Shown: positions 3,749-59,913, numbered from the stretch's first letter. The stretch: 64,000 nucleotides of DNA from Candidatus Woesearchaeota archaeon (GCA_964344555.1 CAYFNK010000004.1:494-64493), one strand, 5' to 3'. Program-made: numbers and translations. Notes: a model not told the origin generated them from the letters alone.

Positions 3749-3840
3749 GCGTCAGTAGGATAGTGGTAGTCCTCAACGTTGCCAATAAATTATTTTGAAG
3801 CAAAAACGTTGGAGCCCGGGTTCAATCCCCGGCTGACGCA
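3749..3840 (+). tRNA. tRNA-Gly(GCC) with a 21-nt canonical 37/38 intron (3785..3805)
   Basis: Acceptor GCGTCAG/CTGACGC plus A73, anticodon stem CAACG/CGTTG, loop TTGCCA|A, T arm CCGGG-TTCAATC-CCCGG. BHB: TTGC pairs with GCAA, flanked by 3-nt bulges CAA and AAA. Confidence 0.88.
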
Positions 3841-4547
3841 TTGTTTTCTTTTATTTGAAAAACCTATTTTTTTATTATATTTTTGAAATTCTCTTCTTGG
3901 AATATATAATTCATATTGGTCTTTCCAATTTTCTTTTGTTTTCCTGAAATACGTTTTACTGTTTATTTTAAATTTATTTTTTAATATCTCTGAAATTTGA
4001 TCTATTAATTTTTTAGAAGTAAGGCATAGAACAAGTCTGCCATCTTTTTTATGGTGTCCATCTGTGTCAAATAAACCTCTTACAAATGATGCTAAGAATT
4101 TATCTGAATGATTTATTGAAATTAGATGAATGTTATGAGTTTTAATAGGAAATATGTTTAGATATTCTTTAATCATTAAGTAAATATCTTTTGAATAAAC
4201 TTTCAGAGTTAATGAATTGTTACGAATGTATTTCATTGGTTTTTTGTTGAATTTATTTTTCAATAATAGTGAAATATATTCTGCGTATTCTTTGTCGTCT
4301 ATTGCATGAAGATGTATGGATATTCTATAATGATATCTTTTTTTATCAAAAAAAATCCCCCATCTCCCGAAAATACTCCCAAAAATTCTCCAAGTATGCT
4401 ATCTTCTTTTGGAATTACTGTCTTTTTATATTTTGGTCCCTTTATCTTTTTATAGTGGTGATGTACTGTGGATTTTGAAACGTTGAGTTTTTTTGAAATT
4501 TTTGGAATTGAATTATTATTTTTGATTAATCTAACTATTTCTTCCAT
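3790..4547 (-). pseudogene. Two-motif LAGLIDADG homing endonuclease split by a frameshift (ORFs 4299..4547 and 3790..4263)
   Basis: The N-terminal ORF has an HTH (IPKISKKLNVSKSTVHHHYKK) and motif 1 LGEFLGVFSGDGGF. The C-terminal ORF, in a different frame, has motif 2 FVRGLFDTDGHH. The C-terminal frame stays open upstream past the stop of ORF 1. T7 and A8 runs at 4338..4355 are candidate slip sites. The last 17 codons are antisense to tRNA-Gly. Confidence 0.6.
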
Positions 4548-6852: not shown

Positions 6853-7317
6853 ATGGAAAGAAGAGGAATATCTCCGTTGATAGCAACTATATTATTAGTT
6901 GGAATAACAATTATTGTTTCTGTTATTGTTTTTACTTTTGTTAGAACTATCGCTGAAGAGAAAGTAAGTGAAACCGAAGCTCATACAAATATTGCTTTAG
7001 CTTGTTCTCAAAATGTTAAATTAGAATATGATGATCCTTTTCCTTGTGGGATTAATAATTCTTTGAATATTTCTGTTTGGAATAAAGGACCTCTCGATAT
7101 TATTGATTTAAAAATACAAGTTTTAGGTGGAAGTAATTCTTATTTGCATCCTATTGATGGTTTAGAATCCTATTATAAGGATCTTTATAATCTGAATATT
7201 GGTTTTGGTGTTGAATATATTGATAAAATAAATTTGATACCAACTATAGAAATTAATGAAGTAAATGGCTCTTGTAGTCCTACTGTGATTGAAATTAGTT
7301 CTATTTCGGAATGCTAG
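6853..7317 (+). CDS. Archaeal type IV pilin-like protein (class III signal peptide)
   Basis: N-terminus MERRGISPLIATILLVGITIIVSVIVF matches the archaeal prepilin/archaellin-type signal: a basic residue-Gly cleavage site followed by a hydrophobic helix. Confidence 0.7.
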   Translation: MERRGISPLIATILLVGITIIVSVIVFTFVRTIAEEKVSETEAHTNIALACSQNVKLEYDDPFPCGINNSLNISVWNKGPLDIIDLKIQVLGGSNSYLHPIDGLESYYKDLYNLNIGFGVEYIDKINLIPTIEINEVNGSCSPTVIEISSISEC

Positions 7318-7350
7318 GGAAGTATGCAAACTGAGTGAAGTTTAGAAGTT

Positions 7351-7358
7351 TTTATAAA
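7351..7358 (+). promoter_or_regulatory. TATA box upstream of the 1274-aa Cys-rich gene
   Basis: TTTATAAA ends 24 nt before ATG 7382, implying a leaderless or very short leader. Confidence 0.45.
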
Positions 7359-7381
7359 GTAATTAATATTTAATTAAAACA

Positions 7382-10300
7382 ATGGATTTCAAAAAAAGAG
7401 GTTTGTTTATTTTTGTAATTTTGTCTGTTTTATTTATTTCTAGTTGTGAAGATTTACAACTTTCTCCTGAAGAAGCAGAAAAACTTGAAAAGGCTTTAAG
7501 AAGTGAAAGGACTATTTGTACTGAAGAAGTTCTAGAATATTGTAGTGATTGTGGAGAATTTAGCAATCTTGTTGAAATAACTTGTTGGGAAGAAGACGTA
7601 GGTTGTTCTTCTCACTCTGAATGTGGTCAAGGAGAATATTGTCATAGTACGGGAGAATGTGTAACTTATAGCGATAATTATTGTATCAACAATGATTGTT
7701 TCTTGGGAGATGGCGACTGTGATCCTAATCAGTGTAATACTGGAGTATGTAGTCAAACTTTAGATAATTGTAATTTTGGTAATGGTATAACTAATGATGC
7801 CGATTGTTGTGTAAGTTGTTTGCCAACTGGTAATGAGTGTAATAGTGATTCAGAGTGTTGTAATAATAATTGTAATAATAATGGATTTTGTGCTGTAGGC
7901 GGAGGGGGAGGAGGAGAGCCAGACATTCCTGTTTCAGAACTTTTACATTCTCCAAGGGTTAGAGATGGACCTAGAGATACAGTTGTTATAGAAAAAGAAT
8001 TGTTCCAAAAGTTGGAGAGAAATTATAGAGATCTTGGTCTTTTAACTCCAGTTGATAGGAGAAGAGTTAGAACTACAACAGAATGTAGATATAATCCTTT
8101 ATGTAGAGATAGTTGTAGTGATGGTTTGGCAGGAGGAAGAAGTAATCTTATAGATGGCGATTCTCCTGAGTGCCAGAGTAGAGTTGAGAGACAGATCAGT
8201 ATTTGTAAACATATCTTTAATAGTGAAGGACATCCATTATATTCTGGTGCCCAAGGTTATGGTAGATGTTCTGGAGAGCAAGGACATACTGGAAATATTC
8301 AAAACCCCCAAGTTGTAGATGATGAAGGTTACGGATATCAAACTCTTTATTATGTTGAAGTAACTAGTTATTATGATAGTACATGTAGTAATTTTTTGAA
8401 TTCTAATGCACCTTGTGGTAGTCAAACTTGTTATTTAGCTAAAGATTCCTATATTTATAATTTAACTTATGATGGGAGCGCAGGTTTTAATAATGTTATA
8501 GGGGATTGTAATAATATTGTTTACAAAGGAGATCTTTATTGTCAAGGTTTTGCTGATGGATTAAACTATGTAGAGTGTGATCCTGCAGTTGATGATGATT
8601 GTGTTGCAGGAGACTATACTCCTTATTATGGTGCTGATTCTATCTCAGGATATTGGACTCCTGCTGATCCTTTAGATGGGTGGACTTTTGAGGAAGTTGA
8701 AACTTATTATAATACCGTTTTCCCAGTTCTTAATGAGAATGGGGAAGATGTAGGAAGTCATTATGATTGTGGGTTAGGTCCTCTTTCTTGTAATTATTCT
8801 ATTCCTGAGTCTCAAACAGTAACTTGTGAACTTGGAGATATATTGGGAGGAGAGCCTATATACTGGTTGAATTCTACTTTAGATGGATCTACTCCTGGAT
8901 GTAGTTATGGGAATCGTACTAGGGAATGTGCATCTGATTTCTTGTATCATGATACTTGGAGCGAGTGTACAGGTAATGCCCCTTTAAGTGAATATTGTAA
9001 TGATGGAATAGATAACGATTGTGATGGTTATGCAGATGATCAAGATACTTCATTTAATAGTGATTATTATGAAAGTAATGATTTTACTGCTGATTGTGGG
9101 GCGTGTGTTAATGAAAGTATAGATGAACAATCTTGTGGCCCTGGTGTGAATTATGAAGGGGTTGGTCTTTGTAATTCTGGTGTTGAAACACGAACTTGTG
9201 GATATGATTGGGGAAATGATTTGTGGGTTTATGGAGAGTGGGAAGGATGTAATGCAACTTTTCCAGTATCTGAATCTGGTGAAAGATGTAATGACGGAGA
9301 TGATAATGATTGTGATGGTGAGGTTGATTCTTATGATAGTGATTGTGGAATTTGTTTAGATGGAGAAGAAGAAAGTGGTACTTGTGGTGAGACTGATGAG
9401 GGATTATGTGAGTATGGTACTCATAAAAGGTCTTGCGAATTTTTTTCTGATATAGGCAATTGGAGTTGGGGAGAATGGTATAATCCAGATACAGGTGTTG
9501 TTGATGATTTTAATACTGCAGATGTAGATGAGAGCTGTGGAGGAGATTATGTTGCTCCAGAGCCAGAAGCTGCAGATCCAGGATATAATGCTCCTTGTAA
9601 TGATGAAGATGATAATGACTGTGATGGTCTTGCTGATTCGACAGACGATGAATGTCAAAATCCTTTACTTACATGTACAGAAGGTGCACAGGAAAGCCAA
9701 TATTGTGAATATCCAGAAGGGCTTGGAGAGTGTTCTACTGGAGGTCAATTCACTGCAAACTGTATTTTTGATTTAAGTGAAGGTTGGTGGGAATATGAAG
9801 AATGGACCTTTGATGGAGATTCAGATGGTTCAGAGTGTTCTGGGGCTACATGGTCGGAAGAAGAGATATGTTTTAACGGATTAGATGATGATTGTGATGG
9901 CGATACTGATGAGGGATGTTCTTCTGAAGATTTTGTTTCTTATTATGTTAAAAATCATTATTTCATAAGCGGTGCTCCTCCTTTGACAAATAATGTTAGA
10001 AATGGTATAGAGAATTCCCTGGAAGTAGGTGGAGATGGAGCTGCTCAAATTGTTTATTGGGACGAAGTTTCAGAATCTGGTCAACATTTGGCTCATGCTA
10101 AGTATGTTGGAGTGGGTGGAAATTGTGGATATGAAGGTTCTCCAAGTAATCCTCAAGTTGTAAATAATCTTTATTGTGAATTTATAGATGTTGGAGATGG
10201 TGGAGCAGTTCTTATTGAACAAGAAAATGATTTAGTTTTAGATGATAATAATAATGCGCATGTAGTTTATATGAAAACTGATTGGAATAACCATCCTTTC

Positions 10301-11206
10301 TTTAGCTTAAATTATGCTGAATATGTTGGAACTGGAGGAAATTGTGGATATGATTCTAATTTATCCAATTTAGCGCATACTCCTACAGAAAGTATTAATC
10401 AGAAATGGAATTGTAATTCTTTGGTTGAGGGAGATATGATGTATAGTCCTAATTTAATGATTGTAAGTGGTACTCCTTATTTTACTTACCTTATTGGAAC
10501 TAATTTAGAAGTTGGTAACTTTGTTTCAGAAAGTTATAGTTCTCTTGGCTCTTATGATTTAGGTCACGATACTTCTTTTGGCAATTTGGCTAGCCATTAT
10601 GAAGGAGAAATTTTATACAACTTAATTTTAACTAACAATTTCAAAATAATTTATGTTGAATATGATATTTCTTCAGGAACGTTTACTAGTATAACTGTAA
10701 GTGAACAAATAAATCCTGCCGGAGTTATAGGTTTAACTGAAATAGATTTGAATGTAGATTCAAGTGGTACTGTCCATATAGTTTATCCTTCTGATTATTC
10801 TGAAGAGATAGAGGGAGAAACATTAGAAAAAATGAAGTTAGTGCATAAGATTAAATCTGGATCTTCTTTTGTAGATTATTCTCCTACATCTAGTGTGTTT
10901 GATATGGATTCAGGTTTTGATGCTCAGATTGAATTTACTTTGGATAATCTTCCAGTTATAGCTTATGAAACTGGGTTGTATAATCCAATAGACCCTGATG
11001 CACCGGTTTATTCAAGACTACAATCTGATGAAATAAATTGGGAACATAGTTCAATAGAAGATAGTGGAGTTAAGTCAGGACATTATATTGAAATAGATTT
11101 GGATAGCCAGAATAAAATACATTCTGCCTTTGTAAGGGTGAGAAGCTCCCAAGATTCTGAGTATTTAGACTTCCTTACTTATTCAGTGATGATCCCTACG
11201 GCATAA
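7382..11206 (+). CDS. Giant secreted cysteine-rich lipoprotein (1274 aa): knottin-like N-terminal cassette, four CxDGxDNDCDG modules, repeat-rich C-terminal domain
   Basis: Signal plus lipobox FISSC. Cys-dense N-terminal module followed by a Gly6 linker. Motifs CNDGIDNDCDG, CNDGDDNDCDG, CNDEDDNDCDG and CFNGLDDDCDG. The C-terminal part repeats YVG(V/T)GGNCGY. Confidence 0.85.
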   Translation: MDFKKRGLFIFVILSVLFISSCEDLQLSPEEAEKLEKALRSERTICTEEVLEYCSDCGEFSNLVEITCWEEDVGCSSHSECGQGEYCHSTGECVTYSDNYCINNDCFLGDGDCDPNQCNTGVCSQTLDNCNFGNGITNDADCCVSCLPTGNECNSDSECCNNNCNNNGFCAVGGGGGGEPDIPVSELLHSPRVRDGPRDTVVIEKELFQKLERNYRDLGLLTPVDRRRVRTTTECRYNPLCRDSCSDGLAGGRSNLIDGDSPECQSRVERQISICKHIFNSEGHPLYSGAQGYGRCSGEQGHTGNIQNPQVVDDEGYGYQTLYYVEVTSYYDSTCSNFLNSNAPCGSQTCYLAKDSYIYNLTYDGSAGFNNVIGDCNNIVYKGDLYCQGFADGLNYVECDPAVDDDCVAGDYTPYYGADSISGYWTPADPLDGWTFEEVETYYNTVFPVLNENGEDVGSHYDCGLGPLSCNYSIPESQTVTCELGDILGGEPIYWLNSTLDGSTPGCSYGNRTRECASDFLYHDTWSECTGNAPLSEYCNDGIDNDCDGYADDQDTSFNSDYYESNDFTADCGACVNESIDEQSCGPGVNYEGVGLCNSGVETRTCGYDWGNDLWVYGEWEGCNATFPVSESGERCNDGDDNDCDGEVDSYDSDCGICLDGEEESGTCGETDEGLCEYGTHKRSCEFFSDIGNWSWGEWYNPDTGVVDDFNTADVDESCGGDYVAPEPEAADPGYNAPCNDEDDNDCDGLADSTDDECQNPLLTCTEGAQESQYCEYPEGLGECSTGGQFTANCIFDLSEGWWEYEEWTFDGDSDGSECSGATWSEEEICFNGLDDDCDGDTDEGCSSEDFVSYYVKNHYFISGAPPLTNNVRNGIENSLEVGGDGAAQIVYWDEVSESGQHLAHAKYVGVGGNCGYEGSPSNPQVVNNLYCEFIDVGDGGAVLIEQENDLVLDDNNNAHVVYMKTDWNNHPFFSLNYAEYVGTGGNCGYDSNLSNLAHTPTESINQKWNCNSLVEGDMMYSPNLMIVSGTPYFTYLIGTNLEVGNFVSESYSSLGSYDLGHDTSFGNLASHYEGEILYNLILTNNFKIIYVEYDISSGTFTSITVSEQINPAGVIGLTEIDLNVDSSGTVHIVYPSDYSEEIEGETLEKMKLVHKIKSGSSFVDYSPTSSVFDMDSGFDAQIEFTLDNLPVIAYETGLYNPIDPDAPVYSRLQSDEINWEHSSIEDSGVKSGHYIEIDLDSQNKIHSAFVRVRSSQDSEYLDFLTYSVMIPTA
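7601..7953. repeat. Copy 1 of a 353-bp near-identical cassette (partner at 11427..11779)
   Basis: Manual alignment gives 3 mismatches in 353 nt (7650 g/t, 7676 a/g, 7690 c/t, approximate positions). Flanks diverge abruptly on both sides. Confidence 0.9.
8996..9901 (+). repeat. Four roughly 91-103-aa intragenic modules, each ending in C-x-[DN]-[GE]-x-D-[DN]-D-C-D-G
   Basis: Motif starts at 8996, 9287, 9596 and 9869. It resembles the Myxococcus-type Cys-rich repeat / MopE-like putative metal-binding motif (from memory, not searched). Confidence 0.7.
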
Positions 11207-11219
11207 TTTAGTAATTTTC

Positions 11220-13055
11220 ATGGTTAATAATAAAAGTTTAAAGTTTTTAGTATTGTTTTTATTAGTTATTTTTATTTCTTCTTGTGTTCAAGAAGATAGC
11301 CCTAGAGCACCAATAAATGTAGATAATCGTCAATGGATTGATGATGGTTGTCGTTATGGTGATTGGGAAGACCCTGAAGATTATTGTAAGCCTGGGGAGA
11401 TGTTTCAGATTTTGGTAGAGGATGAAGGTTGTTCTTCTCACTCTGAATGTGGTCAAGGAGAATATTGTCATAGTACTGGAGAATGTGTAACTTATAGCGA
11501 TGATTATTGTATCAATAATGATTGTTTCTTGGGAGATGGCGACTGTGATCCTAATCAGTGTAATACTGGAGTATGTAGTCAAACTTTAGATAATTGTAAT
11601 TTTGGTAATGGTATAACTAATGATGCCGATTGTTGTGTAAGTTGTTTGCCAACTGGTAATGAGTGTAATAGTGATTCAGAGTGTTGTAATAATAATTGTA
11701 ATAATAATGGATTTTGTGCTGTAGGCGGAGGGGGAGGAGGAGAGCCAGACATTCCTGTTTCAGAACTTTTACATTCTCCTGGTGTTGGAAGAAATACAAA
11801 AAACGATATGAATAATAGAGATTTTAATTGGTTTTTGAAAAAAATTAGATTACGAGAAAAAGAAAGTATTTTTAGTTATAGGGAAGACAATATGCAGTGT
11901 ATTCCGCATCCTGCTTGTTCAACTTGTGTAGATTTGCATGCCAATAATTATGATGAAAATATTGATTTATTGTCTTATGGTTGCGATTATTATGCAGATG
12001 AAAGAGATTTGTCCATTAGAACAGATTCATTTTGTAAACGAACATTCCACTTCTCTACAGGTCCATTTTTCCTTTCTGAAGGAAATGGAGCATGCGAAAG
12101 CGAGCAACATCCTGGAGAAGGATGTTCTGCAGTAGGAGAAGGATATGCAGTAAGTAATGTGGCATATACAAGACAATTTGATGGATCGGATTGGATTTCT
12201 AATGAAAATCTTTGTATAAGTGAAGGTGATAATTGTTGCATACTTCCTGGAACAGATGCTTATAATCCATTTGGCATACTTAGTCTTGATGATGCTTCTG
12301 ATCCAAATGCTTATTTGGAAGGATGGGCCTGTTGCGAATTGAATGAGGATTTATCAAATGATCCAAATTGGGGAAGTAATAGCCTAAGTTTCTTTAGATA
12401 CTGCGGAGATAATTTGTGTCAAGGATGGTTAGATTCTCAGAATCCTTCTCAAGTGTGTAGGGGACCAAATAATGATTTCCCAAGTAGTTATCCTGGTAGT
12501 GTTGATTGTATTCCTGATCCTGATTGGGAGAATGAGTATAGGGAAACATATGAGTCTTGTGTTTATAATACAAATGAACAAGAATTTAGAGATTGTGCTG
12601 ATTGTGTGTGGGTTGATGAAAATGGAGATCATAACTATGACTGTGATCCGGTGACAGAAACTATATATTTTGATTGTAGAACCGATACTTCTTGTGATTC
12701 GGGAGAGCAAGAGATATCTGGATTTTATTTAAGTAATCCGACTAATGGTCACGTGAGTACTAGTTATTCTAGTGATTATGACTGGAGAATATGTTGTAAT
12801 CCTGAACAGTTTACTGTTTCTACAGAAAGTGAAACTCAATTTTTGAGTTTGTCCTCAAATGATAATGCTCATGTTGCGCAGCCTGATACTTCTGGATATA
12901 CAAATTATGGAATAAGCGATCTTAGTAGTTGTAATATTGTAAGTGGAGGTTGTTCCGAAGAACAATTTTGTGTTTTGTCTATGAGTTCATTGAATAATGC
13001 ACACGCTGCATCATGCAATCAAGAAAATTATCCTTACAAGGTATGCTGTAGTTAG
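11220..13055 (+). CDS. Secreted cysteine-rich lipoprotein (611 aa) sharing the N-terminal cassette with the upstream gene and carrying a different C-terminus
   Basis: Signal plus lipobox FISSC. Residues about 70-187 are nearly identical to the 7382 gene product. The C-terminal part is divergent, with three N-[AG]-H...CC repeats. Confidence 0.85.
   Translation: MVNNKSLKFLVLFLLVIFISSCVQEDSPRAPINVDNRQWIDDGCRYGDWEDPEDYCKPGEMFQILVEDEGCSSHSECGQGEYCHSTGECVTYSDDYCINNDCFLGDGDCDPNQCNTGVCSQTLDNCNFGNGITNDADCCVSCLPTGNECNSDSECCNNNCNNNGFCAVGGGGGGEPDIPVSELLHSPGVGRNTKNDMNNRDFNWFLKKIRLREKESIFSYREDNMQCIPHPACSTCVDLHANNYDENIDLLSYGCDYYADERDLSIRTDSFCKRTFHFSTGPFFLSEGNGACESEQHPGEGCSAVGEGYAVSNVAYTRQFDGSDWISNENLCISEGDNCCILPGTDAYNPFGILSLDDASDPNAYLEGWACCELNEDLSNDPNWGSNSLSFFRYCGDNLCQGWLDSQNPSQVCRGPNNDFPSSYPGSVDCIPDPDWENEYRETYESCVYNTNEQEFRDCADCVWVDENGDHNYDCDPVTETIYFDCRTDTSCDSGEQEISGFYLSNPTNGHVSTSYSSDYDWRICCNPEQFTVSTESETQFLSLSSNDNAHVAQPDTSGYTNYGISDLSSCNIVSGGCSEEQFCVLSMSSLNNAHAASCNQENYPYKVCCS
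11427..11779. repeat. Copy 2 of the 353-bp near-identical cassette
   Basis: See copy 1. Same reading frame and same position relative to the lipobox in both genes. Confidence 0.9.
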
Positions 13056-13082
13056 AAAACTATTTAAATAAAATAAAATAAA

Positions 13083-14231
13083 ATGAAGTATATGAAAAAA
13101 AGAGGTATATCTCCATTAATAGCAACTATTCTTTTAGTAGGATTAGTTATAGTTATTGCTTTAATTGTTTTTAACTGGATTACTTTTCTTGCACAGTATA
13201 AATTAGATGAAACTGGAGAGACTATTGATATTTATTCTTCTAGCTTAGACTTTGATTTTGAATGTACAAATGATGTTGATAATGGAAAGTTTAAGGTTTT
13301 GTTCCATAATGAATATGACGGACCAATAACATCTTTTGTTATTGTTTTTGATGATGGAAGTATACGGGAAGTGGGAAAAGATGAGGTTTATCTAAATTCT
13401 TTTGAATCTAAACTTGAAATATATGGGGGAGATGATTATTTGAGTACCAATAATTTAAGAGTTATTCCTCAAATCCAAATCGGTGATGAGTTGAAGACTT
13501 TGAATTATAAAGAAGTAACCAAAAGTTGCGAAGGGGAAATTATTGATGAAGGAGATAACGGAGAAAGTCATACTACCCCAATTACTAGTTGTGAAGTTAT
13601 TGATTTTCCTGGAAACTATGAAATAACAGTTGATCTTGAGATAGAAAATCAGAAAGATTGCATTGTAATAGACTCTGATGATGTTACACTTACTTGTTCT
13701 GAAGGACGTAATATAAGTGCTGAAACATTGGGGGGACAATCTCAAGAGTTTAGGGCATCTGGTATAAAAGTAGAAAATTCAGATAATGTTATATTGGATT
13801 TAGGAGATTGTATAATTTCGAATTTTTATTATGGTCTTTGGATTGTTGATTCCGAAGGAACCCAAATTAATGAAGGAGTAATTGGAAATACTGCTCAACA
13901 TGGACTAATTATTGGAAATTATGAATTTGGACCTGATAGAGGCAGCCCTAATACTATCATTAACGGATTATCTAGAACAGAAACTATGAATCTTCAATCT
14001 GGCTTAAATATTATAAGTGTAGAAATTGGATCTCTTAATACTGAAGTAAACGATTTAGATCTTTGTGGATTTGTTTTGTATTGCTCTCAAGTTGAAGGAG
14101 CAGAAGGAACTCTGAGTGTATCAGGTTCAAATAATACTCTTGCATATGTTGAAGAGAATTCAGATTATGAAGACTGTGAGGATGTCAATTTAACTGAAGA
14201 ATGTTCGCTTGGAGGGTGTTTGACATGCTAA
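13083..14231 (+). CDS. Pilin-like N-terminus fused to a beta-helix-like, Cys-containing extracellular domain
   Basis: MKYMKKRGISPLIATILLVGLVIVIALIVF is a class III signal; the RGISPLIATILLVG stretch is identical to that of the 6853 gene. The C-terminal region has repeated G-x-x-I/V-x-N-S patterns (IKVENSDNVILDLGDCIISN, GLWIVDSEGTQINEGVIGN, HGLIIGN) typical of right-handed beta-helix proteins. Confidence 0.7.
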   Translation: MKYMKKRGISPLIATILLVGLVIVIALIVFNWITFLAQYKLDETGETIDIYSSSLDFDFECTNDVDNGKFKVLFHNEYDGPITSFVIVFDDGSIREVGKDEVYLNSFESKLEIYGGDDYLSTNNLRVIPQIQIGDELKTLNYKEVTKSCEGEIIDEGDNGESHTTPITSCEVIDFPGNYEITVDLEIENQKDCIVIDSDDVTLTCSEGRNISAETLGGQSQEFRASGIKVENSDNVILDLGDCIISNFYYGLWIVDSEGTQINEGVIGNTAQHGLIIGNYEFGPDRGSPNTIINGLSRTETMNLQSGLNIISVEIGSLNTEVNDLDLCGFVLYCSQVEGAEGTLSVSGSNNTLAYVEENSDYEDCEDVNLTEECSLGGCLTC

Positions 14232-16287: not shown

Positions 16288-16968
16288 TTGGAGGAAATAG
16301 TCTTAGAATGCTTTCCAGAAGATAAACCATTTATGAAGCTAGTTGGTTCTTCATCTACTGGAACGATGAGAAAAGGCCATGAAGATTTAGATTATGCAGT
16401 TGCTTTTCAAAATCGCCTTGACAACAACGAATTTTTAGATAAAATAAAAGATATAAATTTGAATATCACTAAGATTAAACAAAATAAACATTATGGATAT
16501 ATTAAAATCAGTGGTGAATTCTCAGGAATGAAATTCGTTCTTGTTCCAATGATTCATCCAAACGGAAAAATTGAGACTTACGAACATGACGCATTTTATC
16601 ATTCTGAATTGATCAATAAACTAAAAAGAGAAGATCATCCTTTTAATTCGATCTTAGCAAAAGAATTTTTCTCTCAGCTAGGCGTATACAAGGAGGTCAA
16701 GGGCATTTCCATTGAATTGTTAATTTTAAAATACAGAGATTTTGATGAAATGTTAAAGGCATTTGTAGAAAATGATTCTTTAAGAGTTAACTTTAGCCAA
16801 AATAATTTACGTTATTCTACAAGCCCACTTGTAGTAGATTATCCTTATTTTGGGGGTCGTTCGTTTACCGAAAAAGTCAATCGTGAGACCTATTCACGTA
16901 TTCAGGAATCTGCGATTAAAGTTTTAAACGACCCAAAATATTTAATTGGGAGCAAAAATGACAAATGA
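16288..16968 (+). CDS. Pol-beta superfamily nucleotidyltransferase resembling only the head and neck of the archaeal CCA-adding enzyme
   Basis: GSSSTGTMRKGHEDLDYAV is the G[SG]...D-x-D motif. LGVYKEVKGISIELLILKYRDF parallels NGVYGAESYIKGFSGYVLEVLIIHYGSF in the true cca gene at 23560. The listed start is TTG, and the frame is open upstream to 16162 without an ATG. Confidence 0.6.
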   Translation: MEEIVLECFPEDKPFMKLVGSSSTGTMRKGHEDLDYAVAFQNRLDNNEFLDKIKDINLNITKIKQNKHYGYIKISGEFSGMKFVLVPMIHPNGKIETYEHDAFYHSELINKLKREDHPFNSILAKEFFSQLGVYKEVKGISIELLILKYRDFDEMLKAFVENDSLRVNFSQNNLRYSTSPLVVDYPYFGGRSFTEKVNRETYSRIQESAIKVLNDPKYLIGSKNDK

Positions 16969-17548
16969 AAGGATAATCCTTATTGATTTTTGGGGTACTA
17001 TCGTTGAAAGTGAAAAAAGAAATAAATTGTGGGGTCTAGTTTTAAAAGATTTTGAGAATCTAATCCTAGACAAGAAAGATATATTTGGTTATTGGAAAGA
17101 AAGATGGTTTAAGTCTGATATAAATAAAGGAGAATTCATTCAAGAATTAATCAAAAGGTTTGAATTAGGGAGTAAAACAACATCTCATATAGAGGATATT
17201 TTAAATTATAAAAACTTCACTCCAATAAATGGAAGAATAGATTCTTTATCAAAGTTAATGAGAGAAGGTTATGAAATTCACTTAGTGTCTGACTGCGGAT
17301 ATGATACAAAAGAATTTGTTGAAAATTCTGCCTTAAACAATATTTTATCTAAACGATTTTATTCTTTTGTGTACAAAACAACAAAAGAAGAAAATTTGTA
17401 TGGGTTAGTCGCGGAAGAAATAGGAACTAGTTGTATAATGATAGGGGACGATTATAAGAGAGACTATAAGATTCCTAAGGAATATGGATTTTCCTCTGCA
17501 CTTATAAGAAAAATAGATATTTTAGAGGATATAATATGCAAGAGTTAG
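16946..17548 (+). CDS. HAD-superfamily hydrolase-like protein with atypical motif I
   Basis: Motif I is IILIDFWGTIV (D-x-W-x-T instead of D-x-D-x-T), motif II is HLVSDCG, motif IV is IMIGDDYKRD. The likely start is ATG 16958. Confidence 0.6.
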   Translation: MGAKMTNERIILIDFWGTIVESEKRNKLWGLVLKDFENLILDKKDIFGYWKERWFKSDINKGEFIQELIKRFELGSKTTSHIEDILNYKNFTPINGRIDSLSKLMREGYEIHLVSDCGYDTKEFVENSALNNILSKRFYSFVYKTTKEENLYGLVAEEIGTSCIMIGDDYKRDYKIPKEYGFSSALIRKIDILEDIICKS

Positions 17549-18564
17549 AATACCTATTAGAAAAAGTTGAAAGAGAAAAATTAATGAAAATCTCTCATAG
17601 AGATAATTTTACTGATATTTATGAAGAGTACGCTAATATATTCTTAAATAAAAGCAGTCTTAAAAAGGATGTGTTAAATCGAAAATTGATTGAACCCCTA
17701 GATAAAGGTATCTTTTTAGTGGAACATGATGATATGAAGCTTTATGATGGAATGTTGTGGATGTCTAGAGAGGTAGATTATATTGGAAAAATGGACTATC
17801 TTTTTACAGTTCCAATGTGGGATTGGTGGATAAATCCCTTGTTCAGCAGAAAAACTCATAGGGATAAAAATAAATCTATTTTAGTCATTGATAAATTTGA
17901 AGAGAATGAAAAAGAATGTAAGAAAATGATAGCTTCGGAGGGTTTTATTACTACAGAATCTTACGACTTGAAACATCCGACTCTTGAATTAACCCAGTTT
18001 TATAGGTATTTAGATTTATTACTTCCAATAAATTTTGCCAGAGAATTAAAGAGAATGAGCAAATTTATAGATGAATTTAATCCTGATAAAATCAATTTTG
18101 TATTAAGAGGGGGATATTTCTTAAAGGAATTTTTTGATTTTTTTAAAGGGAAGGTGGATTTATTGAACCCAAGAGATAACGGCTATCAACCAAATCCAAA
18201 TGAGCTTTACATTGATGATTGTATTGGTTCAACGAGGACTTTCAGTTCCCTTGGATTTTCTGGCAGAGAAACATTTAATTTTTGCTGTTTAAATAGCACA
18301 CTTCCAGGCAGAGTTTATCAGGAATACTTTCCAAATGTAAATTTTAATTTGCCATCAGATCTATTAAATGTTTATTCTTGTAGACTCTTTGAAAAAAATC
18401 CTCGTATTATAGGACTTGATTATTCGAAAAGGGGGTTGCATTTTTATAATAATCCTGTTAGGGAGAATCTTATATCTAAAGTAAAAAATTTTCTTAAAAC
18501 TCCTAATATAGAAGATAAAACTTATAAATTTGCAATGGAGTTAATTAATCATGGTAAAAAATAA
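17536..18564 (+). CDS. Hypothetical protein with a C-terminal type I phosphoribosyltransferase-like region
   Basis: INFVLRGGYFLKEFFDFF resembles the HPRT VLKGG..F..DL segment. ELYIDDCIGSTRTF resembles the PRPP loop (hhhhDD...[ST]G.T) with G replaced. The N-terminal 170 aa have no motif. Confidence 0.4.
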   Translation: MQELEYLLEKVEREKLMKISHRDNFTDIYEEYANIFLNKSSLKKDVLNRKLIEPLDKGIFLVEHDDMKLYDGMLWMSREVDYIGKMDYLFTVPMWDWWINPLFSRKTHRDKNKSILVIDKFEENEKECKKMIASEGFITTESYDLKHPTLELTQFYRYLDLLLPINFARELKRMSKFIDEFNPDKINFVLRGGYFLKEFFDFFKGKVDLLNPRDNGYQPNPNELYIDDCIGSTRTFSSLGFSGRETFNFCCLNSTLPGRVYQEYFPNVNFNLPSDLLNVYSCRLFEKNPRIIGLDYSKRGLHFYNNPVRENLISKVKNFLKTPNIEDKTYKFAMELINHGKK

Positions 18565-19378
18565 AATTATTTTAGATACCGATATTGGTTCTGATATTGA
18601 TGATGCCTATGCTTTAGTCTTTGCCTTAAACTCACCTGAAATAGAAATAAAGGCAATTATAACAAATAACTCGGAAGTGGAAAGAAAAGCCAGGATAGCC
18701 CGAGCGTTTACAAAAGAAATCCCTATTTTTACTGGAATTGAAGTTGATAAAGGGGTTTTAACTACAACAATAAGAGATGGAGATTATGAGCCAAGACCTC
18801 TTCAAAATAATCTTAATTTTTTTAAGGATAAAGACTTAATTTATGTATCTATTGGGGCACTATCAAATTTAGCCTTTTTCTTGGAAAGGGGCATCAAATT
18901 CAAAAAAATAATAATCATGGGGGGTTCTTTAGATATTGATTACAAAGGAAGAAATAAAAAAATCCCAGAGTGGAATTTGAATTGTGATTTAGAAGCAACT
19001 AAAAAAATCTTTGACTGTGATTTAAATATTCTACTTGTTCCTTTGGATGCTACATGGAATTTGGAATTGAGTGACAAACAAATAAAAGAAATAGACCAAA
19101 ATAATAAACAAACCTCAATTTTATTAAAGAAGCATCTTCGAGAAATGAGAGAATTTCTTTTTAAAAAATTTGATATAATTTCCAAAAAACCTGTTTTACA
19201 CGATCCTTTAGCAGTTTATGCTTCATTTGGAAATAAATTTTTTTCGTCAACTAATATGAAAATAGCTATAAATGATAAAGGTTTGCTTAATAAAGATGAA
19301 AATGGAAAAGAAATGAAAGTAATTAATATTTCAAAAAAAGAGTTTATTAATTTCTTTTTGGAGAGAATTTTAAAATGA
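18551..19378 (+). CDS. Inosine-uridine preferring nucleoside hydrolase family protein
   Basis: N-terminal fingerprint IILDTDIGSDIDDAYAL (DxDxxxDD), followed by IMGG and a VLHDPLAV-type segment. Confidence 0.85.
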   Translation: MVKNKIILDTDIGSDIDDAYALVFALNSPEIEIKAIITNNSEVERKARIARAFTKEIPIFTGIEVDKGVLTTTIRDGDYEPRPLQNNLNFFKDKDLIYVSIGALSNLAFFLERGIKFKKIIIMGGSLDIDYKGRNKKIPEWNLNCDLEATKKIFDCDLNILLVPLDATWNLELSDKQIKEIDQNNKQTSILLKKHLREMREFLFKKFDIISKKPVLHDPLAVYASFGNKFFSSTNMKIAINDKGLLNKDENGKEMKVINISKKEFINFFLERILK

Positions 19379-20802
19379 ATAATAATTTAGACTATGAAGA
19401 ATGCCTTAGAGAATTTAAAAAGTCTCTTGTAGATGGAAGCGAATTTGATATTTTGATAGAAGGAATTATTAAAAATATATCAACAAATAGAATAAGATGG
19501 TTTGATGTTGGAATAGGCGATGGACATTATTTAAAGAAGATAGTAACAACTTTAGAAAACAAAGGGTTTGTGGTAGAAGTAACGGGAATTGATAATGATG
19601 AAAAGTCTGTAAGAAAAGCTAAATCTCTCTTTCCAGATGGGAAAATTCTTCAAGGAGACTTCCTTAAAATAGATTTAGAAGGAAAATTCGACGTTTTTAG
19701 TTTTAATCAATCTATATATTATTTTTATAACAAAAATTCAGTTATTGAAAAGTGCTTAGAAAATCTCGCGGAAGGAGGTTTATTAATCTGTGTTTGTTGG
19801 TCTGAAAAAGACAAAATATTCCAATTCCATAAATCCGTATTTGGCAAATGGACATTGGGGGCTTTTACTTCCGAGAATTTTAAAGAATTAATTTCAAAAA
19901 AGAACAAACTGAATTTAGTCTGTGATAATCTGTTTAAAGGAAAAGTAAATTTTAAACTTTGGAAAGATAAAAATAATTTAGAAAAAAATCTTTATGTAAT
20001 CTCTCGAATCCCTGTTTTAGAAGGGATTTCTGAAGTAAATCTAGAAATAGCTGAAACACTAATTAATGAACAAAAAGATAATGAAACAAGAGTAAATGGG
20101 GTGATTATCGCAAAAAAATTGTATGACATTCCTAATTTCACAAGAGAAAAAATAGAATTTCTCTTGAAAGAAAGGTTTCCTAATTATAATAAAAAAGTTT
20201 CCCAAATAAAAGGAGATTTAGAAGCTCTCTTTATGGGTTCTTGGGAAAAAGAAACTGAATATTTATCTGATTATATAGCCTCGGGCAGAGTACTTGAAAT
20301 TTGTTGTGCTGCAGGGTTAAAAAGTATTATTTTGGCAAAGAAACACAAAGTAGTTGCTATTGATATAAACGAAGATAGGTTAAATGCAGCAAGAGATAAT
20401 GCTGTTCTTTTCGAAGTTAATCAAAATACTGAATTTAAGAATGTTAATGCTAAAAAATTTAATGAATTAAAAAAATTGGGAAAATTTGATGTTATTTATG
20501 TTGATGTTGATTGGAGAGAAAATTTGTCTCATCCAATCAAGAAACAAAATATAGATCCGTTCAAAACGTGTCCTAGAACTGATAAACTATATTTAAATCT
20601 TAGAAAACTACACCCAAAAACCCCAATCATATTTAAGATTTCCCCTTTTGTGAGGGTTAAAAATTTAACCAAACTAGATCTGTGCATAATTGAAGAGCTT
20701 TATATAGATGGAAAATTTTTATCATATAATGTTTATTTTGATCCCAAAATCAAAAAGTCACGATGGCAGGCAATTCATCTTTTTAACAATGAGGTAATTT
20801 GA
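19375..20802 (+). CDS. Fusion of two class I SAM-dependent methyltransferase domains; the C-terminal one is RNA cap guanine-N2 (TGS1/Methyltransf_15)-like
   Basis: N-terminal domain WFDVGIGDGHY...FDVFSFNQSIYYF. C-terminal domain VLEICCAAGLKSIILA...VVAIDINEDRLNAARDNA...FDVIYVDVDW. Confidence 0.6.
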   Translation: MNNNLDYEECLREFKKSLVDGSEFDILIEGIIKNISTNRIRWFDVGIGDGHYLKKIVTTLENKGFVVEVTGIDNDEKSVRKAKSLFPDGKILQGDFLKIDLEGKFDVFSFNQSIYYFYNKNSVIEKCLENLAEGGLLICVCWSEKDKIFQFHKSVFGKWTLGAFTSENFKELISKKNKLNLVCDNLFKGKVNFKLWKDKNNLEKNLYVISRIPVLEGISEVNLEIAETLINEQKDNETRVNGVIIAKKLYDIPNFTREKIEFLLKERFPNYNKKVSQIKGDLEALFMGSWEKETEYLSDYIASGRVLEICCAAGLKSIILAKKHKVVAIDINEDRLNAARDNAVLFEVNQNTEFKNVNAKKFNELKKLGKFDVIYVDVDWRENLSHPIKKQNIDPFKTCPRTDKLYLNLRKLHPKTPIIFKISPFVRVKNLTKLDLCIIEELYIDGKFLSYNVYFDPKIKKSRWQAIHLFNNEVI

Positions 20803-21308
20803 AAATGAAAACTTATATAATGGTAGATATTGAAGCAAATGGTCCGATACCAGGAGACTATTCTATGACCTCTTTAGGGGCGGTAGTAGTAGATGAAAAA
20901 TTAGATAAGACTTTCAAGGTTAATATTAAGCCAATATCTAAAAAGTTTGATCCAAGGAGGAGACAATTTGTAGATGAAAGAAATGTAGTTGATGCAAAAG
21001 AAGCTATGCAAAAATTTAAAGAATGGATTCTGAAAAATTCTTCTGGCGAACCGGTTTTTATTTCAGATAATAACGGTTTTGATTGGATGTTTGTATGCTG
21101 GTATTTCTGGCATTTTTTAGAAGAGAATCCCTTAGGATATAACTCTCAAAATTTAAACTCATTAAATAAAGGTTTAAATAAAGATTTACGAGCTAAGATT
21201 GATTTATTGAGAGAAAGAAACCTTACTCATGATGCTTTAGAAGATGCCAAAGACAATGCAAAAATATTTTTTGAATTAAAAAAAAATTTTTTTAAGAAAG
21301 ACATTTAA
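20799..21308 (+). CDS. DEDDh 3'-5' exonuclease (DnaQ/Rv2179c-like)
   Basis: Exo I is MVDIEANGP, Exo II is FISDNNGFDWMF, Exo III is HDALEDAKDNA. Confidence 0.7.
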   Translation: MKMKTYIMVDIEANGPIPGDYSMTSLGAVVVDEKLDKTFKVNIKPISKKFDPRRRQFVDERNVVDAKEAMQKFKEWILKNSSGEPVFISDNNGFDWMFVCWYFWHFLEENPLGYNSQNLNSLNKGLNKDLRAKIDLLRERNLTHDALEDAKDNAKIFFELKKNFFKKDI

Positions 21309-22354
21309 GTGGTTAAACTTATAACTTGCTCATCTTTATCAAATCAAGCCATCTGTTCTTACCTAACTCTAATTTAGGAATAGCTAATTCATAAGGACGA
21401 CAGCCTATTCCTTGATGTTTTCTTATGAAGTTATAATAGATTTCATAACCTTTCATGATCGCAGAAGCAGATTCTATACAACCATGAAAGCCACGCATGA
21501 CTTTTGTTCTTTCCCTAATGGAATTATGTAATCTCTCGATAGGATGGTTAAACCCTCTTTCAGAAGCTATTACAACATTATGAATGATTGGACTTTTGTG
21601 ATTCCAATGGGTTTTCAGACCAAAACTTTTCTTTAGCATTCTTGGGTAGCCCTTAAGTCCATCAGTTGTTATAACCTTAACTTGGCTTCCTGTTGCAAAC
21701 TTACCTCTTTTTAGAACTTTAACCATGTTATCTATTGTTCTGCTTCTCATATAACCAGAAGAAACCATGAATCTCGTTGTTGTATCCATTACATCAACAA
21801 ACCAGTTTTGTTCTCTGCCTTTCTGATATTTGCTTATTCTTCTGTGATACTCCATTTCATCAGATTGTAATTCAACTCCAGATTTGACTTGTAAGCTGTC
21901 TGTTAAATTGCTTATCATAACTGCATATTTTACAATCAAGCGATAAGCAGTAGAATAATGACAATTCTTGGGATAGAACGTTTTAAGATGCTCTTGTATC
22001 TTCCTAAAACTCATTCCATTGTAATACAAATCCATACAGAGAGTGATTTTCTTTTCGTGATTTTTCATCTTATAAAAACCCTCATCAATAGAAAATCTTT
22101 TGCCACAATCTTTGCAACCAAATCTTTGAACCTTGCCTCTGTGTTCGGTTTTTCTTATTCCTCTTTTGATTACCTTGTTAGAACTACAAAAAATACAAGA
22201 AACTTTTTTATACTTCTGTTCTATTATTTCTTTGGATTTCATTTGTTTAGAGACGTTTGGAATCTAGAGGGTGTTAACGCACCCTCTTACTTTATTTAGT
22301 ATAACTATACAAAGTAATACTTCTATATAAACCTTTCGGAGTTAAGTAACCACT
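21308..22354 (-). mobile_element. IS6-like insertion sequence (about 1.05 kb)
   Basis: A single transposase ORF is flanked by imperfect terminal inverted repeats: left AGTGGTTAAACTTATAACT (21308-) and the reverse complement of the right end, AGTGGTTACTTAACTCC (ends at 22354). The first 8 nt are identical, with gapped matches beyond. No target duplication seen. Confidence 0.55.
21319..22242 (-). CDS. DDE transposase, IS6-family-like, with an N-terminal zinc finger
   Basis: CIFCSSNKV...CKDCGKRF zinc finger. Candidate DDE segments are SDEMEY...WFVDVMDTTT, VITTDGLKGYP and IERLHNSIRERTKVMRGFH. Confidence 0.75.
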   Translation of the reverse strand: MKSKEIIEQKYKKVSCIFCSSNKVIKRGIRKTEHRGKVQRFGCKDCGKRFSIDEGFYKMKNHEKKITLCMDLYYNGMSFRKIQEHLKTFYPKNCHYSTAYRLIVKYAVMISNLTDSLQVKSGVELQSDEMEYHRRISKYQKGREQNWFVDVMDTTTRFMVSSGYMRSRTIDNMVKVLKRGKFATGSQVKVITTDGLKGYPRMLKKSFGLKTHWNHKSPIIHNVVIASERGFNHPIERLHNSIRERTKVMRGFHGCIESASAIMKGYEIYYNFIRKHQGIGCRPYELAIPKLELGKNRWLDLIKMSKL

Positions 22355-58148: not shown

Positions 58149-59117
58149 TTATCTTTCCTGAAGAGTATTTCCATTAAGATTATTGTTTAATCTATATGTT
58201 AAATAGAATCTTGCTCTTGCTCCTTGATCTTTAGTTAAAAATTCTCTGTCTCCATATCTACTCATTAGGTTATCTAGTGGTGGCGTATAATCTGGCCCAC
58301 ATTCTTCGTATTCACTTTGTTCTTCTCCAGGTTTCTGTGTTTGAAAGATATAGCTGCATTCTAATGCTTCTTCACAAAAAGTATAACAATCATATGAAGT
58401 ATCACATATATAGTCTCCAATTTTGTAACATTCTTCTGCTGAGTTTGCCCAGTTCGGAGGACCACTAACAGGATAGTCGTCTGTTTCTACAGGAGTTAAG
58501 CCTTCTATGCTGTCTCTTGGAGGTGCCTGACTATCTTTGTGTGTATGTCTAAGTCCTAGGGCATGGCCAAGTTCATGAGAAGGGATAAAACTAGTTTCTA
58601 AAGTTGTTGCCCTAACTGTTGTTAAATGATATTCTGAATTTGTCCAAGGATAATGACTATAAGCCCCCCAGCCGTCTGTGACTAAAACTATGTTTAGATT
58701 AGTAGGATTGTAATTGTTTTTGAATTCTTCTCCTAAATCAGACACTGAAACTCCATCTCCATATTCTATTGTTGTTTCTCCTGCTGTGTTTTCTGTTTCT
58801 CCAAGTTCTGGAAATTGAGAGTTTACGTATATTGCTTCTTCTAGTTCAAAGTTTATTCCATGGGAGTTGTAAACAGTGTTTATTAGATCTATCCCTTTTT
58901 GTATTGATTCTTCATTAGATATGTATTGATTATTGTCTTTGTAAACGAAAAAAGTTAAACCTATTGTTTTTGAAGGTCCGTTTAAACAGTTTAAGCCAGG
59001 ATATGGAAACTCTTCGGATGTTTCTTCCCAGTATTCATATTCATTACAGTAATCTGTTTCTTGTGAACAACTACTTATTAGAATTAGGGTTAGGATTATA
59101 ATTATCTCTTTTTTCAT
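58149..59117 (-). CDS. Secreted zinc metalloprotease lipoprotein (metzincin/M43-like)
   Basis: Signal plus lipobox LILISSC. HELGHALGLRHTH is the HExxHxxGxxH zinc site. Multiple Cys in the C-terminal part. Confidence 0.75.
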   Translation of the reverse strand: MKKEIIIILTLILISSCSQETDYCNEYEYWEETSEEFPYPGLNCLNGPSKTIGLTFFVYKDNNQYISNEESIQKGIDLINTVYNSHGINFELEEAIYVNSQFPELGETENTAGETTIEYGDGVSVSDLGEEFKNNYNPTNLNIVLVTDGWGAYSHYPWTNSEYHLTTVRATTLETSFIPSHELGHALGLRHTHKDSQAPPRDSIEGLTPVETDDYPVSGPPNWANSAEECYKIGDYICDTSYDCYTFCEEALECSYIFQTQKPGEEQSEYEECGPDYTPPLDNLMSRYGDREFLTKDQGARARFYLTYRLNNNLNGNTLQER

Positions 59118-59401: not shown

Positions 59402-59680
59402 ATGGTAAGATATTCTTACTTTATTAAAATGGAAGTAACTAAAATAAGCTCAAAGGGACAGATTGTAATTCCTGAAGAAATAAGAGAAGATATTGAAGTT
59501 GGTACTGCCTTTGTTGTTTCAAAACATAATAATATGATTATATTGAAAAAAGTTGAAGGTCTTTCTGAAAAGGAAATTAAGGAATTAAAAGAACTTAATA
59601 ATATATGGAAAGATATCGATGCAGGTAAGTGTGAATCTTATAGTGAAAAAAAATTCTTTGAAAAGTTAAAAGAATGGTAA
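59402..59680 (+). CDS. AbrB/SpoVT-domain antitoxin (probable start at 59429)
   Basis: MEVTKISSKGQIVIPEEIRE is the swapped-hairpin AbrB/MazE signature. Overlaps the toxin gene by 7 nt. Confidence 0.75.
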   Translation: MVRYSYFIKMEVTKISSKGQIVIPEEIREDIEVGTAFVVSKHNNMIILKKVEGLSEKEIKELKELNNIWKDIDAGKCESYSEKKFFEKLKEW

Positions 59681-59913
59681 GAATTATACCTTCTAAGAAA
59701 TCTTTTAAAGATGTAAAAAAGCTAGATAATGTTTTGAGAGAAAAATTAGAAAAACAAATTAAAAAAATTATAGAAACTCCTCAACTGGGTAAACCTCTGA
59801 GATATAAACGTGGAGAACGTTCTTTGTATGTCAAACCTTTTAGATTGATATATGCGGTTAGAGGCGGTGATTTAATTCTTTTAAAGTTTGATCACAGAAA
59901 AGAAGTTTATTAG
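59674..59913 (+). CDS. RelE/ParE-family toxin
   Basis: 79 aa, with GKPLRYKRGERSLYVKPFRLIYAVRGGDLILLKFDHRKEVY typical of the RelE/YoeB-like fold. Confidence 0.75.
   Translation: MVRIIPSKKSFKDVKKLDNVLREKLEKQIKKIIETPQLGKPLRYKRGERSLYVKPFRLIYAVRGGDLILLKFDHRKEVY

Follow-up and report, generated by a model that had tools for sequence, protein, structure and literature searches.

A conserved, fast-evolving gene cluster of two pilin-like proteins and two cysteine-rich predicted lipoproteins in a Woesearchaeota archaeon

A stretch of DNA of 64,000 nucleotides from Candidatus Woesearchaeota archaeon (GCA_964344555.1 CAYFNK010000004.1:494-64493), called the window hereafter, carries four neighboring genes, here named A to D, that encode two pilin-like proteins and two cysteine-rich predicted lipoproteins. 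These genes are a real, conserved and fast-evolving surface gene module composed of new protein families. The window is archaeal in content, with tRNAs that contain introns, EF2, EF1A, the termination factor FttA, and split RNA polymerase subunits, and has a GC content of about 30%. A first-pass annotation of the DNA had described four co-oriented genes at 6853-14231, and all four open reading frames (ORFs) were found at this place on the plus strand:

6853-7317, plus strand: gene A, a small type IV pilin-like protein of 154 aa
7382-11206, plus strand: gene B, a Cys-rich predicted lipoprotein of 1274 aa, acidic (isoelectric point 4.05)
11220-13055, plus strand: gene C, a Cys-rich predicted lipoprotein of 611 aa, paralogous to B
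13083-14231, plus strand: gene D, a bimodular pilin of 382 aa

The gaps between A and B, B and C, and C and D are 64, 13, and 27 nt long, respectively. A tRNA-Tyr gene lies upstream of A on the opposite strand, and a gene for an RsmF-type methyltransferase begins 31 nt downstream of D. TATA-like strings are present 5' of A and 5' of B; as such strings are uninformative at 30% GC, it is from spacing and orientation alone that A-B-C-D can be regarded as a putative operon. The two large proteins had been called giant lipoproteins: both are indeed Cys-rich, but B, with its 1274 aa, is large rather than giant.

The class III (prepilin-type) signals attributed to A and D were confirmed. With TIGR02537 (archaellin/type IV pilin N-terminal; cut-off of 20 bits), A scores 32.7 bits and D 28.1 bits, both above the curated cut-off; with the Pfam family Pilin_N (PF07790; gathering threshold of 25.2 bits), A scores above the threshold (30.8 bits) and D below it (18.4 bits). 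Within the window, this type of signal is confined to A and D. The leaders read MERRG/ISPLIAT in A and MKKRG/ISPLIAT in D (the slash marks the predicted cleavage), and the 14-residue N-terminal stretch announced as common to both proteins, RGISPLIATILLVG, is present in each. Protein A, which has four Cys and a predicted cleavage at G/ISPLIATILLVG, has orthologues with 50-79% identity on the related contigs L002, L008, and L011. A profile built from the A and D families gave weak matches in the PDB to archaeal pilin filaments (8fj5, 8fk7, and 3j1r), and in PHROGs A found only weak matches to groups of unknown function. We propose A as the plain pilin and as a candidate filament or stalk subunit.

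In D, two modules can be distinguished. The start used in the orthologues suggests that translation probably begins at 13092 (MKKRG), and the modules are as follows:

13092-13547, plus strand: pilin module of D, aa 4-155, homologous to all of A
13548-14228, plus strand: C-terminal module of D, aa 156-382, all-beta

The first 155 aa of D align with the entire A protein (31% identity, E = 5e-15). Since residues 4-155 match the whole of A, D consists of an entire pilin module and about 230 extra residues that make up a second module, as in modular type IV pilins. Orthologues of D were identified on L008 (D_8) and L011 (D_11) and among database proteins (P0004-6). Two of the six members of the D family match Beta_helix (PF13229; best E-value 6e-12) and one of the six matches NosD; moreover, the C-terminal part of the window's D aligns with residues 180-297 of D_8, its beta-helix region (E = 3e-5). 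The right-handed beta-helix is a fold that usually serves the binding or cutting of carbohydrates. In the orthologues of D, a CxDGxDNDxDG-type motif stands between the two modules; it is degenerate in the window's copy. In a low-confidence AlphaFold2 model of D, built from a four-sequence alignment, beta strands come after a helix at residues 11-43. The N-terminus recurs in a related pilin, P0007, where a LamG/pentraxin-type module is attached to it. This module differs from that of D, and thus the pilin scaffold carries various binding-type modules in these archaea.

The signal peptides of B and C both end with ISSC at residues 19-22. This ending agrees with the lipobox consensus, a [LVI][ASTVI][GAS]C that closes the hydrophobic region of the signal peptide, as quoted in a study that reported predicted lipoproteins to be abundant in DPANN archaea and AliA, the lipidation enzyme, to be present there (PMC12462473). 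ISSC or ISGC is kept in the orthologues B_2, B_8, B_11, C_2, and C_8 (named after their loci), and the ISSC ending is also found in two unrelated lipoproteins, P0009 and P0016. The lipobox Cys of B and C is a putative site of lipidation, for which archaea have the AliA/AliB pathway. One other lipobox-type ORF is present in the window, a M12/reprolysin-like zinc metalloprotease (58149-59117, minus strand) with a LILISSC lipobox like that of B and C.

Cysteines are exceptionally frequent in both proteins (73 in B, or 5.7%; 51 in C, or 8.3%). After subtraction of the lipobox Cys, their number is even in 18 of 18 orthologues of A to D, and odd totals (73, 51, 73, 43, 53, 41, and 61) are confined to the orthologues that bear a lipobox. 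This parity fits full disulfide bonding together with a single Cys for the lipid anchor. Elsewhere in the window, an 818-aa thioredoxin-DsbD fusion (Thioredox_DsbH + DsbD_TM) is encoded at 59947-62403 on the plus strand. On the same strand, from 62960 to the window's end at 64000 and beyond (L020:4731-6158), lies the gene of another DsbD-type membrane protein, which has a heavy-metal-associated domain; a DUF7343 gene separates the two. This pair may handle extracytoplasmic disulfides, which would be relevant given the Cys-rich secreted proteins.

B and C are paralogues, a relationship that the first-pass annotation had overlooked, and align over about 460 aa (E = 8e-95); the B and C proteins of locus L004 likewise align with each other (E = 1e-29). 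Full-length homologues of B are P0002 (82% identity), P0008, P0013, and the B protein of L004, and the orthologues of C are P0054 (73%) and the C proteins of L008, L011, and L004. The two window proteins are divided as follows:

aa 1-22 of B: signal peptide and lipobox (ISSC)
7585-7953, plus strand: cassette of B (copy 1), aa 68-190, with a C-x6-C-x5-CC-x3-C-x5-C pattern and a Gly6 linker
8060-8995, plus strand: core of B, about aa 227-538, common to C, with a conserved G-D-x-x-C-Q-G-[WF]
8996-9931, plus strand: MopE-like region of B, aa 539-850, four CxxGxDxDCDG units, each followed by a Cys-rich spacer
9932-11203, plus strand: C-terminal repeat domain of B, aa 851-1274 (about 420 aa), propeller-like, motif YA.YVG.GGNCGY
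11411-11779, plus strand: cassette of C (copy 2), derived from B
aa 221-495 of C: core, shared with B
12705-13052, plus strand: 'NAH' triple-repeat domain of C, aa 496-611, three units of about 40 aa with an invariant N-x-H and a terminal CC

The putative metal-binding repeats noted earlier (CxDGxDNDCDG) correspond to four CxxGxDxDCDG motifs, which a pattern search placed at aa 539, 636, 739, and 830 of B, and Gly6 linkers occur in both B and C, as had been stated. These units may form a Ca2+-binding spacer region. With their Cys-rich spacers, they resemble the repeats of MopE-like PF11617 proteins such as P0010, P0012, and P0014; unlike in those proteins, the units make up a single segment of B, the match to PF11617 (16.6 bits) is below the cut-off of 27, and the remainder of B has no counterpart there. 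Two of five orthologues of B match the family, the best with an E-value of 5.3e-8. In the C-terminal domain of B, self-comparison with hhalign detected internal repeats (probabilities of 95% and 72%), and related proteins made up of such repeats only were found (P0022, P0029, and P0032). The first-pass terms 'knottin-like' and 'propeller-like' are thus backed by a Cys-spacing pattern and by internal repeats, not by a fold. Because structure predictions failed, 'knottin', 'propeller', and 'beta-helix' alike stay labels at the sequence level.

The NAH domain is conserved in all five orthologues of C and is a candidate binding (lectin-like) module of an unnamed family. The same triple repeat was observed in two unrelated Woesearchaeota surface proteins from other archaeal metagenome-assembled genomes: one of 345 aa, anchored by a C-terminal transmembrane segment (L016:7899-8936), and one of 1064 aa, which contains the repeat internally (L018:1179-4373). 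Pfam and NCBIfam gave no match for most of B and C: cassette, core, repeat domain, and NAH domain alike are without one. PDB searches, made with B, with the families of B and of C, and with the NAH domain, yielded nothing significant. The large proteins might have turned out to be enzymes unrelated to the surface; however, their comparison with Pfam, NCBIfam, PHROGs, PADLOC, and PDB revealed no enzymatic homologue, nor any viral or defense homologue.

The cassettes of B (7585-7953) and C (11411-11779) are 97.8% identical over 369 nt. Their eight mismatches all fall in the first 106 nt, and the final 263 nt are identical. At this position, the C orthologues of L002, L008, and L011 have another cassette type in common, and therefore the window's C took its cassette from B recently: a recent gene conversion from B to C has displaced the ancestral cassette of C. 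Misassembly of the repeat was considered and rejected. The independent contigs L001 and L007 break inside the repeat yet hold the copy-specific junctions, which excludes a chimeric join. In B itself, the cassette is an insertion relative to P0008, P0013, and the B protein of L004.

The cassette module is also present in the lipoproteins P0009, P0016, P0018, and P0020. P0016 has both cassette types in tandem, and P0009 has the B-type cassette several times, adjoining leucine-rich repeats (LRR); cassettes are thus shuffled among the surface proteins of this group. In other proteins with the cassette or with propeller-like repeats, Pfam searches identified only unrelated partner domains (LRR, matrixin, and MopE). 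In addition, an exhaustive search detected a 536-aa matrixin-type (M10) metalloprotease, P0019, with about five tandem copies of the center of the B cassette (YCVNNYCGIGDGDCDPGQC). Part of the cassette is thus a Cys/Asp-rich unit whose wide reuse extends beyond these archaea.

Modular variation of this kind, together with the knottin-like Cys spacing, is all that could be cited for another proposal of the first-pass annotation, a surface for the delivery of toxins or effectors. In the form considered here, B and C would be polymorphic toxins exported via a pilin-like pseudopilus. No toxin, immunity, or secretion-ATPase domain was found when the cluster was scanned with Pfam, NCBIfam, PHROGs, and PADLOC. 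Moreover, the variable modules of B and C are N-terminal and internal and the C-terminal domains are the conserved parts, unlike in proteins with C-terminal toxin tips. Nothing supports toxin delivery, and we regard the proposal as scarcely credible.

The gene order is conserved in three other Woesearchaeota lineages (L002, L008, and L011) and, for B-C-D, in a more distant archaeon (L004/L015). A-B-C-D followed by the methyltransferase gene is found in L008 and in L011, the latter from an assembly also named 'Candidatus Woesearchaeota archaeon', and A-B-C is found in L002, a short contig whose B protein shares 82% identity with that of the window. The flanks are syntenic as well in the window, L008, and L011, with an O-methyltransferase upstream and the RsmF-type methyltransferase, a CCA-adding enzyme, a proteasome subunit, and FttA downstream. 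This could mean that the four genes are adjacent by descent alone and have no joint function, the order being uninformative when close relatives share the whole region. However, in L004/L015, B, C, and D are adjacent although B is only 25% identical and the neighbors are all different (seryl-tRNA synthetase, topoisomerase, and Cdc48). B-C-D is therefore a conserved core, and the order does not merely reflect regional ancestry. The short gaps and common orientation, the existence of two paralogue pairs (A/D and B/C), and an elevated evolutionary rate common to all four genes also argue against mere descent, which is very improbable.

This rate is evident from comparison of the window with L008 and L011, in which the RsmF-type methyltransferase, the CCA-adding enzyme, the proteasome subunit, and FttA are 68-91% identical, whereas A to D are 27-54% identical. 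In the comparison with L002, the segments with a high rate of nonsynonymous substitution (dN) are B 562-759 and C 61-158, both of which are whole-module replacements. Surface and pilus proteins have been reported to diversify fastest in DPANN archaea (PMC6142677). Fast divergence combined with module swapping is what one would expect of proteins exposed to a partner cell, to a virus, or to a substrate that varies.

Relatives of these proteins are extremely rare. A HMMER search with B in 1.84 billion cluster representatives yielded 46 matches at E <= 1e-3 and five at E <= 1e-30, and word-index searches returned only the window's own proteins, one relative with 73-82% identity, and the proteins that share the cassette. 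A scan for the C family detected five loci in 185,579 species genomes and a single locus, of the lineage of L004, in metagenomes. These counts bear on the possibility that B and C are the main envelope coat of the clade, comparable to a surface layer (S-layer), with A and D as anchoring or accessory subunits of a structural cluster. B and C are large, very acidic, secreted, and predicted to be lipid-anchored; their genes are single-copy and occupy a fixed place among housekeeping genes in related genomes; rapid divergence is typical of S-layer proteins too; and archaeal pilus loci have been linked to S-layer-like proteins (PMC4858521). However, the rarity of their relatives means that they are not a general coat of Woesearchaeota. 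Likewise, Pfam and NCBIfam scans identified no S-layer domain, and a multi-module build with exchangeable cassettes is more adhesin-like.

The potential N-glycosylation sites speak against a coat as well: N-x-S/T sequons, which should be dense in archaeal S-layer glycoproteins, are depleted in B and C. There is one in C, against 8.6 ± 2.5 in shuffled sequences, and there are eight in B, against 13.4 ± 3.4. The same count gave 0 against 3.8 for the M12 protease and one against 5.7 for the thioredoxin-DsbD fusion; among these four deficits, that of C alone is strong (about three standard deviations). The shortage of sequons in secreted proteins suggests avoidance or absence of N-glycosylation. 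On balance, we consider a coat unlikely.

The interpretation that we favor, with a confidence that is evenly divided between acceptance and doubt, is that A to D are the extracellular parts of a type-IV-pilin-based surface adhesion structure in Woesearchaeota, which belong to the DPANN archaea. In such a structure, A would be the plain pilin that forms the filament or stalk, and D would be a modular pilin that displays a carbohydrate-directed module of the right-handed beta-helix type. The paralogous, acidic B and C proteins would serve as multidomain adhesins with full disulfide bonding, exported by a Sec-type signal and, in the lineage of the window, held at the membrane by a lipid on the lipobox Cys. 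The binding-type modules on display would be the propeller-like repeats of B, the NAH repeat of C, and the exchangeable cassette on the N-terminal side of both. Genes for the assembly machinery (prepilin peptidase, ATPase, and platform protein) would lie at other places in the genome. The set of A to D is inherited as a unit, diverges much faster than its neighbors, and changes by module swaps. The sequence features described above are observations, whereas the formation of filaments, lipidation, a physical link between the four proteins, and attachment to a host are inferences; the host-contact role suggested in the first-pass annotation is plausible. Of the refuting conditions named in that annotation, none was borne out within the reach of the analysis, and its interpretation is partly supported.

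Several observations weigh against this interpretation. First, searches for a prepilin peptidase, a pilus ATPase, and a platform protein were negative in the window (64 kb), in about 9 kb read past the window's end, and, in relatives, up to about 10 kb from the cluster; the neighborhoods checked in relatives for the ATPase (T2SSE/ArlI-like) and the platform (TadC/ArlJ-like) were those of L003-L006, L008-L009, and L011-L013. Second, A is missing from the L004 cluster, where an unrelated membrane protein takes its place. Third, the signal peptide with a FISSC lipobox described for B and C is present in both, but no lipobox occurs in their most distant orthologues (B_4 and C_4 of L004) or in C_11 of L011. 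Fourth, the beta-helix-like domain attributed to D is supported by the matches of its orthologues to PF13229 and by its alignment with them, but a Pfam scan of D itself at E <= 1 gave no beta-helix match. Fifth, no usable fold was obtained: the mean predicted local distance difference test score (pLDDT) was only 47 for D and was 30 for the C core with the NAH domain (AlphaFold2, eight sequences), too poor for a fold search. Sixth, positive selection by point substitution is unsupported, the ratio of nonsynonymous to synonymous rates (dN/dS) of the cluster versus L002 being 0.24-0.35. Finally, the earlier statement that no described archaeal system pairs pilins with Cys-rich proteins was too strong, since archaeal type IV pilus loci with large secreted Cys-rich putative adhesins or S-layer-like proteins have been described (Makarova, Koonin & Albers, 2016; PMC4858521).

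As for the processing of the two pilin-like proteins, no Peptidase_A24-type ORF is present in the window or in the approximately 9 kb past its end. The only intramembrane aspartyl protease of the window is a presenilin-type signal-peptide peptidase (PF06550; 28170-29000, minus strand), which does not belong to the PibD/FlaK family.

The lack of dedicated pilus machinery beside the cluster would also be consistent with a bindosome-like apparatus for the capture or degradation of polymers, in which A and D would form a short membrane stalk, the beta-helix of D would cleave or bind polysaccharide, and B and C would bind nutrient substrates. Proteins with class III signals other than pilus subunits do exist, as in the bindosome of Sulfolobales, and their wider occurrence has been proposed (bioRxiv 10.64898/2026.04.22.720090); the Beta_helix and NosD-type matches of the D orthologues point in the same direction. 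The cluster resembles the Sulfolobales bindosome in having pilin-type N-termini on proteins with non-pilin domains and, possibly, assembly genes elsewhere in the genome. Unlike the bindosome, it has no solute-binding fold and its partners are Cys-rich lipoproteins; no ABC transporter and no match to a glycoside hydrolase or lyase family was found in or beside it. Furthermore, the residues other than Cys that are invariant in the B/C core (D, F, G, E, P, Q, and W) are not suggestive of a catalytic site, and quick divergence with cassette swaps would be unexpected in proteins that bind a chemically constant nutrient. This alternative thus appears quite unlikely.

The adhesion structure that we favor can be compared with several known systems. 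The cluster matches the general pattern of archaeal pilus loci (PMC4858521) and of bacterial modular pilins (PMC8179133). Like the archaeal type IV pilus loci (PMC4858521; type IV filament census, bioRxiv 10.64898/2026.04.22.720090), it has Pilin_N-type proteins beside large multi-Cys proteins with signal peptides, rapid sequence evolution, and a modular composition. In contrast to these loci, it lacks the ATPase, the TadC/ArlJ platform, and the peptidase; the B and C families have no Pfam or NCBIfam match, carry a lipobox here, and are devoid of DUF2341 or PilY-like domains; and the cluster is confined to a few Woesearchaeota lineages.

Modular pilins are known to act as adhesins, for example PilB of Streptococcus sanguinis (PMC8179133). 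Like PilB, D has a full pilin module and an extra globular module, which may be displayed on a filament. Unlike PilB, which bears a von Willebrand factor A (vWA) or lectin module, D is archaeal, of Pilin_N type, and has a graft of putative beta-helix type. Protein B, for its part, recalls the bacterial PilY1/PilC pilus-associated adhesins: its gene neighbors pilin genes, and the protein, not itself a pilin, combines a size in the range of about 1100-1300 aa with a signal peptide, acidic metal-binding-type motifs, and C-terminal propeller-like repeats. However, B is extremely Cys-rich and predicted to be lipid-anchored, and the likeness is one of analogy only: neither the PilY1/PilC propeller family nor DUF2341 gave a Pfam match with B and C (E <= 1) or with five orthologues of B (E <= 0.01).

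To our knowledge, the way in which DPANN archaea recognize and hold partner cells is largely unknown, and nothing is known of it in Woesearchaeota. The cluster offers concrete candidates for cell-cell recognition in this group, namely, two pilins and two predicted lipoproteins, and adds several uncharacterized domain families, among them the core shared by B and C, the NAH triple repeat, and the Cys cassette that can be exchanged. In addition, the cassette conversion within the genome is direct evidence, in an archaeon, of the diversification of surface proteins by module exchange. If the adhesion role holds, A to D are targets for co-culture, localization, and host-range studies; if it fails, they are ordinary lineage-specific envelope proteins.

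A bolder version of the adhesion hypothesis, which we consider decidedly unlikely, is that the cluster is a self-contained surface recognition device with variable exposed tips: the lipoproteins would be mounted on a scaffold of A and D, and cassette conversion among B, C, and other lipoprotein genes would reset the specificity. If this were true, it would be a mechanism of antigenic variation or host-range switching, of which we know of no description in archaea so far, and B, C, and D would be the first candidate host-recognition proteins of Woesearchaeota.

Three further features of the window were observed. A block of about 6 kb (16288-22242), which is missing at the matching place in L008 and L011, is probably an insertion. 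Its genes encode nucleotidyltransferase-like and HAD-like proteins, a 342-aa ORF, a nucleoside hydrolase, a 475-aa methyltransferase, and an RNase T-like protein, and it includes a DDE transposase-like ORF (21319-22242, minus strand). Between the genes of the metalloprotease and the thioredoxin-DsbD fusion, a MazE-antitoxin-like and ParE-toxin-like pair lies at 59402-59913 on the plus strand (precomputed Pfam, L020:9205-9716). Lastly, a LAGLIDADG homing-endonuclease-like ORF (3790-4263, minus strand) overlaps a tRNA-Trp call of 92 nt (3749-3840, plus strand), which is long enough to contain an intron.

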